Virus record (IMG/VR): IMGVR_UViG_3300047470_000212
Coordinates: 1 to 64,000 of that record
DNA from: a virus
Direction: 5' to 3' (one strand)
Length of the DNA: 64,000 bases
Shown one piece after another: positions 48,055 through 56,281 of the stretch. The first letter of the stretch is position 1, and every line of letters starts with the position of its first letter. The notes below the pieces were generated by a model. It was given only the letters and a program-made list of their open reading frames with translations. It did no database searches and was not told where the DNA came from. Position numbers and translations under genes: made by a program.

Positions 48055-49698
48055 TTATGCCGCTTCCAGGCACTGCGTGAGGCTCACCAGGTCGTTCTCG
48101 ATGCGGCCCTTGTCGTCCGCACCACGGCCGTCAGTGATGGCCGCTCCCACCCTGCGCTTGTGCGCGAGCATGGCGTACTTACGGGGCTCGGTCGTGGCCT
48201 GGGTGATCGCGTTCAGCACGTAGATGTTCTTGAACAGGCTGGACGCCCGGTCGTGCCTCTTGTTGATCTGGTCCTGTTTACCGCTGCTCCAGGCCAGGTC
48301 GTAGTTGATCAGGTAGTTCGCCATCCACAGGTCCGTGCCGAACGCTCCGGCGTGGCTGGACAGGAACACCCGGCAGCCCTCCTCCGTCTCGAACCGGGAG
48401 GCCGCGTACGCCTTGGCCCCGGCACTCATCCGACCCGTGTAGGTGACGGCCACACCCTCCGGCAGCCGGTCGGCCATCAGGTCGAGCATGTCGGGGTTGA
48501 CCGAGAAGACGATGGCCTTGTTGCCAGGCACCGCGAGGATGTCCTCGATCGACTGCACCACGGCATCCAACTTCGGGGTCGCAGTGACGTCGTCCAGGAG
48601 CCCGGACTGCCACACCTCGTAGCAGTACTTCGAGCCCGGCCAGGTCTGCTTCTCCGCCCCGCCCTGCCGCGCCTGCTCGCTCTCCTCATACCGCTGCCCG
48701 GACGCGATGATCAGGTCCGGGTGGTTCAGCAGCATGTCGAGCGCCTGCATGCGAGACATGATCTTGCCCTGCTGGCTGTTCTCGTTCGGTGTCTCACCGC
48801 CGTGGTAGTGGGCGAACAGGTCGAAGTCCGAGGTGTTCGGGCCGAGGGCGTGCAGCTCAGCCAGCAGGTCGGCGGAGATGTGCTTGTACGCCTTGCGGGT
48901 CTTGGCGTCCAGGTTCACCGGGATGGTGCTCTCCTGGACCTTGGGCAGGTACGGCTTGACGTCCTCGTCCATGCGGGTCTTGCGCACCATGGCGTCGGCC
49001 AGTTTGGCGTGCAGGACAGGCAGGTTCTTGTAGTGCTGGACCCCGCCGAACTTGTTCCGCACGATGTAGGTCTTGTCGTACAGGTCGAAGCGTCCCAGCA
49101 CCTCGTCGTCGACCCACTGCATGATGCTGAACAACTCCTCCGGCCGCCCGTTCTCCACCGGGGTGCCGGTCAGTGCGTAGCGGTACGGCGCCGTCAGTCG
49201 CTTGATCTTCCGGGTGCGCTGCGCCTTGAAAGTCTTGATGGCGGTCGCCTCGTCCAGGACGATGCACTCCGGCTTGATCCTCCTGACGAAGTTCCAGTCG
49301 TTGACGACGTTCTCGTAGCCCATGATCACGTAGTCCGGCCGGTACGTCTTCACCTTGACGTACTGACCGGCCCGCTTCTTGGTGTCGCCGTCGATGAGGA
49401 TGCAGTACTCCTCCGTCGGCACGGTGATCTCCTGGGTCTGCCCGTCCTCGCGCACCTTGATGACCCGCGTGGGAACGTCGGTGAGTTTGGCGATCTGTTT
49501 GGCCCACTGGTACTTGAGCGAGGCCGGGACCACGATGACGGCGGTCTCGACCTCGCTCTTCTCGATCAACTCCTCAATGGCGGCCAGGGCGATCGGTGTC
49601 TTGCCCAGGCCCATCTCGTAGGCGATGAGGAGGGAACCGCGCTCGACGGCGCGGTCCACTGCGGACTCCTGGTACGTGTGCAGGTCGATGGTCAGCAC
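48055..49698 (-). CDS. SNF2-family helicase
   Basis: EMGLGKT, VVPASL, IVLDEA, LTGTPVEN, PKL, INYDLAW, QINKRHDR. Confidence 0.9.
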   Translation of the reverse strand: MLTIDLHTYQESAVDRAVERGSLLIAYEMGLGKTPIALAAIEELIEKSEVETAVIVVPASLKYQWAKQIAKLTDVPTRVIKVREDGQTQEITVPTEEYCILIDGDTKKRAGQYVKVKTYRPDYVIMGYENVVNDWNFVRRIKPECIVLDEATAIKTFKAQRTRKIKRLTAPYRYALTGTPVENGRPEELFSIMQWVDDEVLGRFDLYDKTYIVRNKFGGVQHYKNLPVLHAKLADAMVRKTRMDEDVKPYLPKVQESTIPVNLDAKTRKAYKHISADLLAELHALGPNTSDFDLFAHYHGGETPNENSQQGKIMSRMQALDMLLNHPDLIIASGQRYEESEQARQGGAEKQTWPGSKYCYEVWQSGLLDDVTATPKLDAVVQSIEDILAVPGNKAIVFSVNPDMLDLMADRLPEGVAVTYTGRMSAGAKAYAASRFETEEGCRVFLSSHAGAFGTDLWMANYLINYDLAWSSGKQDQINKRHDRASSLFKNIYVLNAITQATTEPRKYAMLAHKRRVGAAITDGRGADDKGRIENDLVSLTQCLEAA

Positions 49699-49985
49699 TG
49701 GGAGTACTGCCGATCGAACTGCCTGCTGGTGCGCGGGCGCCGGGCGAAGGGGACGCCGGGGGTGTAGTGCCCCTCCTGGATGTGGTCCGGGTTGGCGCAC
49801 ATCCGTCGCGTGCACGCGCGGTGCTTCTGGCTGCCGCCTCCGGTGATGAAGGACAGCAGGCTCTGGCCCTTGTAGGTGGGCCGGGTCGCGGTGGACTGGA
49901 AGATCAGGCAGTCGGTGTCCGGGTCCGGCTGGACGCGGTCCCAGAAGGCCTGTCCCAGGTGTTCGTAGCCATCAGGCGGAAGCAT
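49692..49985 (-). CDS. HNH-type (His-Me finger) nuclease-like protein
   Basis: FWDRV...DCLIF...HRAC...CANPDHI. Confidence 0.6.
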   Translation of the reverse strand: MLPPDGYEHLGQAFWDRVQPDPDTDCLIFQSTATRPTYKGQSLLSFITGGGSQKHRACTRRMCANPDHIQEGHYTPGVPFARRPRTSRQFDRQYSQC

Positions 49986-50031
49986 TGGCGGCCTCCGCCC
50001 AGGTATGAAGCCGGTTGTTCATGGGGTGCAT
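49972..50031 (-). CDS. putative 19-aa mini-ORF MHPMNNRLHTWAEAANASA
   Basis: ATG overlaps the primase TGA; runs over the HNH start; CTT-CAT-ACC in frame. Confidence 0.35.
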   Translation of the reverse strand: MHPMNNRLHTWAEAANASA

Positions 50032-53702: not shown

Positions 53703-54770
53703 TCAGGACCAGTAGTCCTCGTTGAACCTGTTGTTCTCCACCTCGTCGACCTTGTCAGCCTTGCCCAGTCGCTGGGTCAGCAGCCCACGGGCGGCAAGGA
53801 AGTCCTTCCAGGCGACCACGTTGTCCGAGCGCTGCCAGGAGGTGGACCAGTAGGTGATGATCATCTGGCGTACCTCTTCGCGCCCAAGGCCCTGGGCCAT
53901 CCACCGGCCGAAGGTCCCAGTCAGGGCTCCGAGGTTGGTGGAGCCGGGGACCGGGTGACCTACTTCCCCGGCCCGGTGGTCGAAGAATTCCGCCAGTTCC
54001 TCCGAAGGCCTCTTGGAGCGCTTCTTAGGAGTTCGCCGGGCCGGAGGGGCCAGGTCGCCATCCGAAGCCGGGAGACGGGCGGCCAGGGACTCTCCTGGAT
54101 CACCGTCACCGATGGCCTGGGATACCACGTAGGCCGGATCGAGTTCCCGCTCGGCCTGCTCCTGCTCCAAGGCCTCCTGCTTCCGGGACTTCCTCTTGCC
54201 GCCAGGACCCCGGAGGGGGCGTACCGCATTCCAGCCCTTGGCTCCCGGCCTGGGAGTCTCCTCGGCATCGTAGAGATCCGACCGCGCCGACTGGCGCGGT
54301 GGAAGAGACGTAGTCTCTTCTATTTCTCTAGTAGTACTAGTTAGGTAGTTAGGGGTTGGGTGCACTCCAGTGCAGGGTGCAATATTTGCAGGGTCCTCTG
54401 GAGTTGTTATGTCACAACTACCTTCGTCGACCCCTGCATTATTTGCAGGTGTAGTTCTTGCACCCTTCTCGGGCTCCGGAATCCACTCTTCGATGGGGAG
54501 AATCCGGCGCACAGCGGACTTGTACCGCAGGGACTCCAGAGGCCTCTCCTCGTCGGAAACGGACTCGATGATGCGACGCTCCTCCAGGTCCCGCAGGACG
54601 TTGTAGGTCTGCCGCTCCTTGATGTTGGCCTTGCTGGCGATGGTTGGTACTGAAAGCCAGCACATCCGGAAGTCGTCATCCGCTGCGTCGGCCATGGCCA
54701 GCAGGACCAGTCGGGATGCAAGTCGGGTGTGCTTGCTCCGCATCACCTCGCCCATGATGATTACGCTCAC
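53703..54770 (-). CDS. replication initiator-like protein with N-terminal wHTH
   Basis: RLVLLAMADAADD...CWLSVPTIASKANIKERQTYNVLRDLEE is typical of phage replisome organisers; lies upstream of the DnaC-like gene. Confidence 0.75.
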   Translation of the reverse strand: MSVIIMGEVMRSKHTRLASRLVLLAMADAADDDFRMCWLSVPTIASKANIKERQTYNVLRDLEERRIIESVSDEERPLESLRYKSAVRRILPIEEWIPEPEKGARTTPANNAGVDEGSCDITTPEDPANIAPCTGVHPTPNYLTSTTREIEETTSLPPRQSARSDLYDAEETPRPGAKGWNAVRPLRGPGGKRKSRKQEALEQEQAERELDPAYVVSQAIGDGDPGESLAARLPASDGDLAPPARRTPKKRSKRPSEELAEFFDHRAGEVGHPVPGSTNLGALTGTFGRWMAQGLGREEVRQMIITYWSTSWQRSDNVVAWKDFLAARGLLTQRLGKADKVDEVENNRFNEDYWS

Positions 54771-54814
54771 TCGGCGACTCCGAGGAAGCGATAAGTATGA
54801 AGCGATAGCGTCAT
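54767..54814 (-). CDS. putative 15-aa leader ORF MTLSLHTYRFLGVAE, coupled to the initiator
   Basis: TGA overlaps the initiator GTG (GTGA); CTT-CAT-ACT in frame. Confidence 0.45.
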   Translation of the reverse strand: MTLSLHTYRFLGVAE

Positions 54815-54866
54815 GGTAATGTGCTCTCTATCTCGGGGTTTGTGGTGGGCCTCGGGGTGTGGTGGG

Positions 54867-54924
54867 CAAAGGCCCCCGGCAGTGGCTTGAAGGTCTTGAA
54901 CCTCGCCAGCGCCGGGGGCCTTTG
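54867..54924 (-). terminator. stem-loop, putative terminator
   Basis: CAAAGGCCCCCGGC...GCCGGGGGCCTTTG. Confidence 0.6.
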
Positions 54925-54930
54925 CGTTAC

Positions 54931-56160
54931 TCACTCCGAGTCGAGTTCGAGGCCCTTCTCCTCGATCTCCGCCCGGGTCAACTGCACGACGGTCTGTCCG
55001 GCCGGGATGCGGCCACGGCCGCGACGGGTGTAGTTGCCCTCGTCGTCGACCAGGTAGGCGAACGTCTTGTTCTCGTCACGCGGGCGACCACGACGCCGAC
55101 GGGGAGAGGACTGCTCCTCCTGGTCACCCTCCGGCTCCTGGTCACCCTCCGGCTCCTCGGCCGCCTCCGGCGCCTTCTGCTTCTGCTCGCCGGTCTCCGG
55201 CAGCGTATGAAGCGCCTTGCGCAGCAGTTCGGTCAGCGGTCGCTCGCGCACGTCGGCCTGGTTGATGATCGCGTTGCGCTCGTCCTCCAGACGGAAGGAG
55301 TTGTAGGCACCCTCCAAAGCGGCGCGTATCAGGAGCAGGTCGATCTCGGCGTCCGGGACCGGCTTGTCGGTCTCCTTCTGCTGCGCCTTGTGCTGCGCGC
55401 GGGCGATCGTCTCCTGCAAGGACTCCTTCTCCTCCTCGACAGGCGCCTCTTCCTCGACCGGCTCGGCGGCCTTGCGACCACGACGGCGGGGCTCCGGCTT
55501 CGGCTCCTCCTCCGGCTTGTCCTCGGTCAGCGGCTCCTCTTCCGGCTCGGCCGTCTCCGGCTCGGCGCGACGGCCACGGCGACCGCGACGGCGGGGCTCC
55601 TCCGGCTCGGGCTCCGGCTCGGGCTCCGGCTCGGGCTCCGGCTCCGCCTCGGGCTCGGCGTGGGTCTCGGCAGCGAAGGAGATGTCGTCGAGTCCGGCCG
55701 TCAGGTCCTTGGCCGTGATCCCAGCGGCCTCGGCCGCGTCCAGGAGGAGTTCGGCCTCCTCGCTGCCCTCGGAACCCCACAGCAGGATCACGTGGGCGTC
55801 GCCCTGACTGTCGGCGTTCTTGAGGAGTTCGACGATCCCGGCGGTGACGTTGGCAGTCTTCACGACCTCCTCGGCGTCCTTGAGGATCTTGTCGACGGCC
55901 CGGCTCTTCTCGCCGTCGGTGACCGCGACGAACGGGATGTCGGCCCACTCGGACCACTCCAGGACGGTCTCCAGTCCGTCGGACAGGTGCTTCTTGGTGA
56001 TCGGGAGGATGAGCGTGATCTCGCGCTCGGAGGGCTCGGGGTAGCCGTCCTTGTCTTCCTCGCCGAGGCCCACGAAGTCGTTCAGGAGGGCCTTGACGTT
56101 GTCCAGGTCGGTGGCGGCGTCGCCAGCGAAGGCGAGTGCGATGGGCTGAGTGCTGCTCAA
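54931..56160 (-). CDS. acidic protein with EP repeat and RRRGRP (AT-hook-like) motifs
   Basis: EPEPEPEPEPEPEP; RRRRGRPR; RRGRGRIP; TTG after GGAG. Confidence 0.65.
   Translation of the reverse strand: MSSTQPIALAFAGDAATDLDNVKALLNDFVGLGEEDKDGYPEPSEREITLILPITKKHLSDGLETVLEWSEWADIPFVAVTDGEKSRAVDKILKDAEEVVKTANVTAGIVELLKNADSQGDAHVILLWGSEGSEEAELLLDAAEAAGITAKDLTAGLDDISFAAETHAEPEAEPEPEPEPEPEPEPEEPRRRGRRGRRAEPETAEPEEEPLTEDKPEEEPKPEPRRRGRKAAEPVEEEAPVEEEKESLQETIARAQHKAQQKETDKPVPDAEIDLLLIRAALEGAYNSFRLEDERNAIINQADVRERPLTELLRKALHTLPETGEQKQKAPEAAEEPEGDQEPEGDQEEQSSPRRRRGRPRDENKTFAYLVDDEGNYTRRGRGRIPAGQTVVQLTRAEIEEKGLELDSE
55601..55657. repeat. 12-bp tandem repeat (TCCGGCTCGGGC) encoding poly-EP
   Basis: Seen directly. 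Confidence 0.8.
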
Positions 56161-56281
56161 GTCTGCTCCCGATGTGGTGTGTTTGCCGCCCTTCCGGCGA
56201 CAGGAGAAGACGTTACCGGTTACGGCTTCTAAAAGCAAGAAACCCCCGCTTCGCAAGCGAGGGTTTCAAAGCGTTTGACAA

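Follow-up and report, generated by a model that had tools for sequence, protein, structure and literature searches.

A conserved 15-codon leader overlapping a phage replication initiator carries one copy of a genome-wide, frame-locked CTT-CAT-ACN element found in two dialects

The replication initiator gene of the virus recorded as IMGVR_UViG_3300047470_000212 is preceded by a 15-codon open reading frame (ORF) whose stop codon overlaps the initiator start, and this leader raises the question of whether it controls synthesis of the initiator and, if so, what reads it. The sequence studied, hereafter the window, is the first 64 kb (64,000 nucleotides, nt) of the 107,080-bp record, a genome with direct terminal repeats, a guanine-plus-cytosine content of 64.6% and nearly all of its genes on the minus strand. 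A preliminary description of the locus had proposed that the first gene of the replication operon is gated by a CTT-CAT codon signal. From sequence comparison, we favor a reading, held with a probability of roughly 0.55, in which translation of the leader would unlock an initiator start masked by a hairpin and couple ribosomes to it, while the motif inside the leader would add a control point for a trans-acting factor.

The leader mini-ORF occupies 54767–54814 on the minus strand and comprises 15 codons and a stop, reading MTLSLHTYRFLGVAE; it was delimited from this sequence and from 12 of 12 relatives. Its letters, ATG ACG CTA TCG CTT CAT ACT TAT CGC TTC CTC GGA GTC GCC GAG TGA, with the ATG at 54814, had been quoted exactly from the minus strand, and the TGA (54769–54767) indeed overlaps the initiator GTG (54770–54768) as GTGA. 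The span first assigned to the ORF, 54767–54830, was too long, 54815–54830 being upstream sequence. The initiator gene (53703–54770, minus strand; 355 codons, GTG start) encodes an O-like protein with an N-terminal HTH_36 domain (PF13730, E = 2e-8 in Pfam) that is also matched by PHROG families annotated as replication initiation O-like, and downstream of it lie genes for a DnaC-like loader, DnaB and a primase (PHROG). We take the GTG at 54770 as the true start because homologues without a methionine at position 6 (beginning MSLAIQ, MSIIIT, VSHKV or VSILRVKR) share position 1 alone with the initiator, and because PHROG profiles align initiator residue 2 with profile position 2; the gene thus starts at the overlapping GTG and not upstream in another frame. 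The initiator Shine-Dalgarno sequence, GGAG (54778–54781, minus strand), lies 7 nt before the GTG, within the leader codons GGA-G, and GGAG or GGGG stands at this place in most relatives. In some relatives the N-terminal domain of the initiator is exchanged for one of the VSILRVKRTKGYTTIPN type, the first four codons and the leader being unchanged, and some initiator homologues contain an HNH domain.

The relatives fetched for comparison comprised 18 loci from uncultured phages of about 100–110 kb and one locus from a Streptomyces genome, and 12 distinct upstream regions among them were compared for the leader. A mini-ORF of 12, 14 or 15 codons is present in all 12, always with its TGA overlapping the initiator GTG, so that the short ORF with its Leu-His-Thr codons is conserved among related phage genomes, the comparison that had been proposed as a check. 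The leader ATG is the sole start codon common to these 12 regions, six of which lack the longer frame that begins at GTG 54934. The frame survives both a 9-nt deletion, stop-start overlap included (L014), and a shift of the ATG by one codon (L015), and the arrangement persists in relatives whose initiator N-terminal domain differs (L011, L014, L015). A lone 15-codon ORF could be due to chance; its in-frame conservation in all 12 relatives, together with its membership in a motif of 39 copies, exceeds chance.

The leader had also been described as rich in rare codons. Six of 14 codons are used for less than 15% of their amino acid (CTA 1.4%, CTT 7.6%, CAT 12.9%, ACT 7.9%, TAT 5.3% and GGA 14.2%), a count matched by about 4.6% of random coding windows. 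The richness stands as a count, but one of the six, GGA, is explained by the initiator Shine-Dalgarno GGAG, to which it belongs. The leader further contains the direct repeat TATCGCTTC-N5-TATCGCTTC (54784–54807, minus strand), the first copy of which overlaps the motif; in L041, TACGGCTTC stands at both places.

The motif copy in the leader (54794–54803, minus strand) reads G-CTT-CAT-ACT, in frame as Leu-His-Thr, and belongs to an element distributed over the whole genome. The 8-mer CTTCATAC has 39 copies on the minus strand against one on the plus strand, where about 0.6 would be expected, and is the most over-represented 8-mer, just as CTTCATACC is the top 9-mer (164-fold). Copies within the window span 666–55214 on the minus strand, and nine relatives carry 28–37 copies on their main strand versus 0–1 on the other. 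All 24 deep-coding copies are read as CTT-CAT-ACN (83 of 86 across four genomes), and 25 of the 28 Leu-His-Thr tripeptides are encoded in this way. At orthologous sites the nine core letters are kept while nearby synonymous positions drift, and the conserved core extends to about 10 nt, R-CTT-CAT-ACC, with the R before and the ACC after conserved as well. The CTT-CAT signal of the preliminary description is therefore a genome-wide, frame-locked element, not merely two rare codons but about 10 nt plus a hairpin.

The one copy on the plus strand is found near the beginning of a small gene of that strand, in frame with it, and in all complete genomes it shares the orientation and frame of this gene. 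An antisense guide RNA was dropped as an explanation of the motif, since this inverted copy is an ordinary element read in frame within its gene. This small gene sits between a tyrosine integrase gene and that of a 694-aa serine recombinase (genome 87002–90553). Motif copies are spaced by 1–3 kb, and a block of 18 kb (5.3–23 kb) with genes on the same strand is devoid of them. In a Streptomyces assembly of 10.7 Mb, 36 of the 61 copies of the 9-mer are clustered within about 118 kb; the others are at chance level, so that the host chromosome itself is not enriched in the motif. Pairing of the core with host 16S ribosomal RNA was rejected, the best case giving eight pairs, G:U included, at an irrelevant place. 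Rfam returned no match, no conserved tail (tRNA-like CCA or U tract) was found past the hairpin, and the CTTCATAC 8-mer appeared in the full-text literature only within primers.

Every motif copy is followed by a hairpin, and this association as part of the element is new here. The 30 nt after the core have a mean folding energy of −11.1 kcal/mol, against −6.2 kcal/mol at 1,500 random positions (standard deviation of the mean, 0.5); the extra folding is confined to these 30 nt, with none upstream or further downstream, and the effect was repeated in genomes G001–G003 and G014. The stem begins most often at +11 (14 of 39 copies, counting from the C of CTT), and in 27 of 39 it begins between +7 and +11; a start at +11 explains the preference for G at +11/+12. 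Sense and antisense strands do not differ in folding because the stems are almost all Watson-Crick, and two coding copies vary too little among genomes for covariation to be of use.

The leader hairpin is a member of this class. It is predicted to form at 54764–54790 (minus strand; CGCUU.C.CUCGG-AGUCG-CCGAG.U.GAGCG), enclosing the initiator Shine-Dalgarno sequence, the GUG and the leader stop, with an energy of −13.8 kcal/mol (z = −2.8), and it also appears in a predicted fold of 211 nt. In an alignment of 11 relatives, pairing holds in 89% of cells and two pairs show compensatory change; in L004/L006 and in L041 the Shine-Dalgarno sequence is covered as well, by other hairpins. Competition for the 3' arm of the hairpin is conceivable from the first TATCGCTTC repeat, but no convincing alternative fold appeared.

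Other gene junctions are built in the same way. Intergenic copies of the motif sit in mini-ORFs, every ATG up to 30 nt upstream being in frame (6/6 in this genome), and each mini-ORF ends in a stop that shares letters with the following start, as TGATG, GTGA, TTGA or TAATG. The likeness to the recA leader, which had been pointed out before, is borne out: the leader MRLHTYGGPC (40223–40191, minus strand) ends in a TGA that overlaps the TTG start of a protein confirmed as RecA (PF00154, E = 8e-44), and this TTG lies within a hairpin of −19.6 kcal/mol, while at the 3' end of recA a TGATG overlap occupies a hairpin loop. After the primase gene, a 97-aa gene (49692–49985) starts inside a mini-ORF of 16–19 codons that begins with M and ends in NNRLHTWAEAANASA (49960–50022, minus strand; the mini-ORF at 50010). 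The GGAGG of that gene forms part of the hairpin stem, and its ATG falls in the loop. At four junctions, the element's own hairpin holds the Shine-Dalgarno sequence or start of the next gene. Overall, 10 of 39 copies are no more than 22 codons away from a stop adjoining the next start, about three times a rough estimate of 3.5 that assumes genes of about 250 codons.

The element occurs in two dialects. A sister clade (L004/L006, equivalent to G013/G012, together with G014 and G016) carries CTT-AAT-ACN at every copy and never CTT-CAT. CTTCATA is absent from the L004 and L006 contigs, where CTTAATA stands instead (13 and 5 copies), read in frame as Leu-Asn-Thr/Ile and with hairpins after it. A complete AAT-type genome has 38 CTTAATAC and no CTTCATAC, a complete CAT-type genome has 36 CTTCATAC and no CTTAATAC, and the two dialects are mutually exclusive within a genome. 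At 24 orthologous sites the difference is confined to base 4; the initiator leader is a further shared site, reading CTT-AAT-ATC in the sister clade where the leader here has CTT-CAT-ACT. Thus, the middle amino acid is immaterial, and the motif of the leader has been retained across the switch. The AAT form is locked to frame 0 by codon usage because its frame 1 contains TAA and its frame 2 TTA, and clade-specific copies seem to arise from pre-existing Leu-His-Thr or Leu-Asn-Thr peptides by synonymous change. This dialect switch, drawn from genome comparison, is likewise new here. Since base 4 changed at every copy, whatever reads base 4 would have had to change along with it, which favors a sequence-specific trans factor over codon rarity; the reader is most likely a co-evolving factor encoded by the phage.

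According to the mechanism that we favor, ribosomes would initiate at the leader ATG and traverse one copy of the R-CUU-CAU-ACN signal, leader translation would melt the hairpin enclosing the initiator Shine-Dalgarno sequence and GUG, and termination at the UGA overlapping the GUG would let initiator synthesis proceed by coupling or re-initiation. The position of the signal inside the leader means that its recognizer could decide whether ribosomes reach the initiator start, and it may act positively or negatively. Several observations weigh against this mechanism. Conservation is far higher throughout the intergenic region than in the initiator gene (55–72% protein identity), so that of the gene-like feature within it must be read with care: conservation of the leader ORF is partly confounded and could reflect constraint at the nucleotide level, and just two indel events test the leader frame. 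For its own initiation the leader has a weak ribosome site, a purine-rich stretch some 10 nt before the ATG, whereas that of the initiator is well spaced and could support independent initiation when the hairpin breathes. Besides, the codon usage of the CAT form favors another reading frame (expected shares of 22/17/61%).

The preliminary description had placed the gate at the level of codons. Spelled out, such a gate would have ribosomes themselves as the reader: CUU and CAU, both read by G:U wobble and placed before a hairpin, would stall them, and passage, and with it the initiator, would be tied to the supply of a tRNA such as a long-arm tRNA-His. The CAT dialect is indeed locked in frame although codon usage favors frame 2, and the hairpin and the C of CUU are 11 nt apart, as a P-site codon and the messenger RNA entry usually are. 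The long-arm tRNA-His(GUG) itself (86 nt; genome 101737–101822, minus strand), which resembles the phage's tRNA-Leu(CAA), is confined to CAT-dialect phages (8 of 12 loci versus 0 of 8 of the AAT type). An ordinary tRNA-Asn(GUU) is present in all loci of both dialects, no long-arm tRNA with a GUU anticodon was found, and our literature search returned no paper on a long-arm tRNA-His in phages. As an obligatory reader, this tRNA was rejected, since four CAT lineages that lack it (G003, G015, L062 and L064) keep 31–35 copies of the motif; it may thus be at most a helper. Slow NAU codons by themselves would also predict a mixture of CAU and AAU within a genome, which is never seen, and the R before the core and the ACC after it are conserved too. 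Nor does frameshifting come to the aid of a codon gate: there is no X XXY YYZ slippery sequence, stops in the +1 and −1 frames follow at varying distances, the −1 frame of the AAT-dialect leader contains a stop, and the zero frame continues with a normal coding signal after the motif, so that frameshifting is unlikely because no alternative frame is consistently open. We consider the codon gate unlikely, and codon rarity less likely than a trans factor as the property being read.

The leader could instead be translated and coupled while the motif serves as an element of messenger RNA processing or stability that does not regulate initiator synthesis. About 25 copies lie mid-gene with no start codon following, and the hairpin alone could account for the coupling; yet the excess of copies near stop-start junctions, the four junctions where the hairpin holds the next Shine-Dalgarno sequence or start, and the retention of the motif in the leader through the dialect switch speak against such a general-purpose role, which we also hold to be unlikely and rank after the codon gate. 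It is more improbable that the region is an untranslated DNA or 5' control region (a promoter, an operator or iterons for the initiator) in which the ATG is incidental. Here the TAnCAT letters could be an actinobacterial −10 element (TANNNT), the TATCGCTTC-N5-TATCGCTTC repeat could be a protein-binding site, TAnCA and the two 9-mers are conserved, both 9-mers changing together in L041, tandem CCCACCACA repeats lie directly upstream, and the extreme nucleotide conservation set against the diverged initiator would fit. No sigma-70-like promoter was found, however, and in L015 the hexamer is TACCAG, without the key final T, while the ATG shifts by exactly one codon. The 9-nt deletion of L014 preserves the frame and the stop-start overlap, and the ATGs near every other intergenic copy in this genome are in frame. 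Least probable, to our minds very much so, is a role at the DNA level, be it lagging-strand priming, a nick or packaging signal, or an AT-rich target of Lsr2 or AT-hook proteins, with the leader copy as a by-product. The strong strand bias, the 1–3 kb spacing, stems that are nearly all Watson-Crick and alike in both senses, and an acidic protein encoded directly upstream are compatible with it, but in all complete genomes the inverted copy goes with the gene that carries it, in orientation and in frame, the coding copies are locked in frame, and mini-ORFs are built around the intergenic ones.

With a trans factor as the preferred reader, the best candidate, judged from sequence and a structural model, is an 80-aa HicA-fold protein, predicted to be a ribonuclease (RNase) or an RNA binder, whose gene lies outside the window (genome 93411–93653, minus strand; L038:9411-9653:-). 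Its sequence type tracks the dialect. The gene ranks first of 99 genes in this respect across six genomes and gives the clearest split of 24 genes over 20 loci, with 65–100% identity within a clade versus 38–40% across, ahead of a 64-aa gene (genome 99080–99274) that comes second; the AAT-type protein has a 14-residue insert. The Pfam family HicA_toxin (PF07927) matches 6 of 10 orthologues weakly (best E = 5e-5). The model has an alpha-beta-beta-beta-alpha order, with predicted helices at 20–31 and 64–76 and strands at 35–39, 43–47 and 53–58, and five HicA structures match it over nearly their whole length (54–59 residues; Z 4.5–5.1; root-mean-square deviation 2.6–3.6 Å), Foldseek alone giving a weak HicA match. 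The candidate shares this fold and the histidine of a GGNH turn with HicA toxins (PF07927; 6HPB, 5YRZ, 4P78, 6G26, 1WHZ), GGNH being invariant among its orthologues and the histidine conserved in the turn. The ORF itself ends in the motif of its clade, with C-termini of the form AGLHI or KGLNL. The protein may bind or cut the single-stranded core beside the hairpin. HicA is presented as a double-stranded-RNA-binding-fold domain (PMC10865869), and such a fold would suit a hairpin with an adjacent single-stranded core.

Other points weigh against this candidate. The copy in this genome scores 17.8 bits against a Pfam cut-off of 27, the model has a predicted local distance difference test score (pLDDT) of 68, and Z values of about 5 are modest. 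The link between HicA type and dialect is, as far as the sequences tell, a correlation resting on essentially one evolutionary split. Judging by the title of a 2009 study by Jorgensen, HicA toxins are reportedly translation-independent, which would leave the frame lock unexplained. No HicB-like gene was recognised adjacent to the gene, the neighbouring ORFs having no Pfam match in a search that was not in-depth. In the HicA literature that was found, no defined 10-nt target beside a hairpin is described as repeated in a phage's own genes.

A wider proposal can be built on this candidate, one that we regard as possible and put forward tentatively, in which the leader would be a single node of a phage control system not described before. 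About 38 frame-locked copies of R-CUU-NAU-ACN with their hairpins would mark replication, recombination and part of the structural genes; they would be read by the phage HicA-fold RNase or RNA-binding protein, whose specificity would have switched together with all its sites, from CAU to AAU or the reverse, creating "RNA immunity groups" akin to those that repressors and operators define. At the mini-ORFs of the initiator and of recA, one cut or one bound protein might then shut off replication and recombination.

Several known systems resemble parts of this arrangement. In the ermC and cat leaders, in MS2 coat-replicase coupling and in T4 gene e, as predicted here, a hairpin holds a Shine-Dalgarno sequence and start that a translating ribosome must open, and systems of leader attenuation and coupling share with the present leader a short upstream ORF whose stop adjoins the next start. 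Unlike leader-attenuation systems, the leader here has no evident pair of alternative hairpins or inducer, and it carries an element found about 38 times elsewhere, mostly inside genes. In Streptomyces, adpA is preceded by a short ORF that contains a rare UUA close to the 3' end and is under bldA-type control, and use of this device by phages has also been discussed (PMC10732093). The likeness lies in the actinobacterial setting, in a short ORF ending a few nt from the main start and in rare codons proposed as a sensor; the difference from the single codon of adpA/bldA lies in the fixed 9–10-nt core with its hairpin, the clade-wide change and the dispensable matching phage tRNA. The frameshift cassettes of prfB (CUU-UGA-C) and dnaX likewise combine a CUU codon with a hairpin 5–6 nt after the next codon, the classic spacing, and a stem mostly at +11 agrees with the spacing of stimulatory structures at frameshift sites (5–9 nt downstream); unlike them, the present element has no slippery heptamer and no conserved alternative frame or product. 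T4 RegB is a phage RNase that cuts GGAG in early messages, and motif dialects that co-evolve with their readers include the Neisseria DUS with ComP and the T7 and T3 promoters with their polymerases. As in these cases, a short motif here marks a phage gene set and motif and putative reader change together; unlike them, it is frame-locked in coding sequence and paired with a hairpin.

Upstream of the leader, two tandem copies of CCCACCACA(A)ACCCCGAG (54832–54866, minus strand) are a candidate transcript 5' region or protein site; the repeats occur nowhere else in the genome and hardly vary among relatives, the second copy being invariant in 11 of them. No intrinsic terminator was found, in the same search that returned no promoter. 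A hairpin with a 15-bp stem (54866–54925, minus strand), terminator-like without a U tract and conserved in relatives, follows the upstream gene, which encodes a 441-aa acidic, repeat-rich protein (54931–56256, minus strand) without a solid Pfam match and with one motif copy at 55212. At the start of the window, a T4 Rnl1-type RNA ligase (PF09511; 2–1102) and an RlaP RNA-repair nucleotidyltransferase (PF10127; 1864–2517), both on the minus strand, suggest an RNA repair set. Neither a T7-type RNA polymerase nor a sigma factor was detected in the genome, in a polymerase search whose control itself gave no signal, and a Pfam search of the early-block proteins returned no matches.

DNA and protein searches of the initiator region against the GenBank phage collection gave no match, and two metagenome scans gave nothing. 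By DnaB (40% identity), the closest cultured relatives are BRock-type phages, and the CTT-CAT motif is absent from a 40-kb stretch of BRock. The genome encodes a tyrosine integrase (minus strand) and the 694-aa serine recombinase, with a DUF4096 domain, within 87002–90553; one relative is classified as a provirus and another is embedded in a 203-kb Streptomyces contig. Together, these features suggest a temperate phage, a lifestyle in which an immunity-like role for the motif system is conceivable, although this is speculation.

Leader ORFs that open a hairpin-masked start are textbook; what is unusual here is that such a leader would serve as a docking point of a genome-wide, frame-locked element with dialects and a co-varying RNase-fold protein. 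As a test bed the system is an easy one: it takes a single short leader and a single reporter, and nature supplies two dialects. If the HicA link is true, a HicA-fold protein would gain a defined RNA target, and a temperate Streptomyces phage would possess a post-transcriptional counterpart to repressor-operator immunity.

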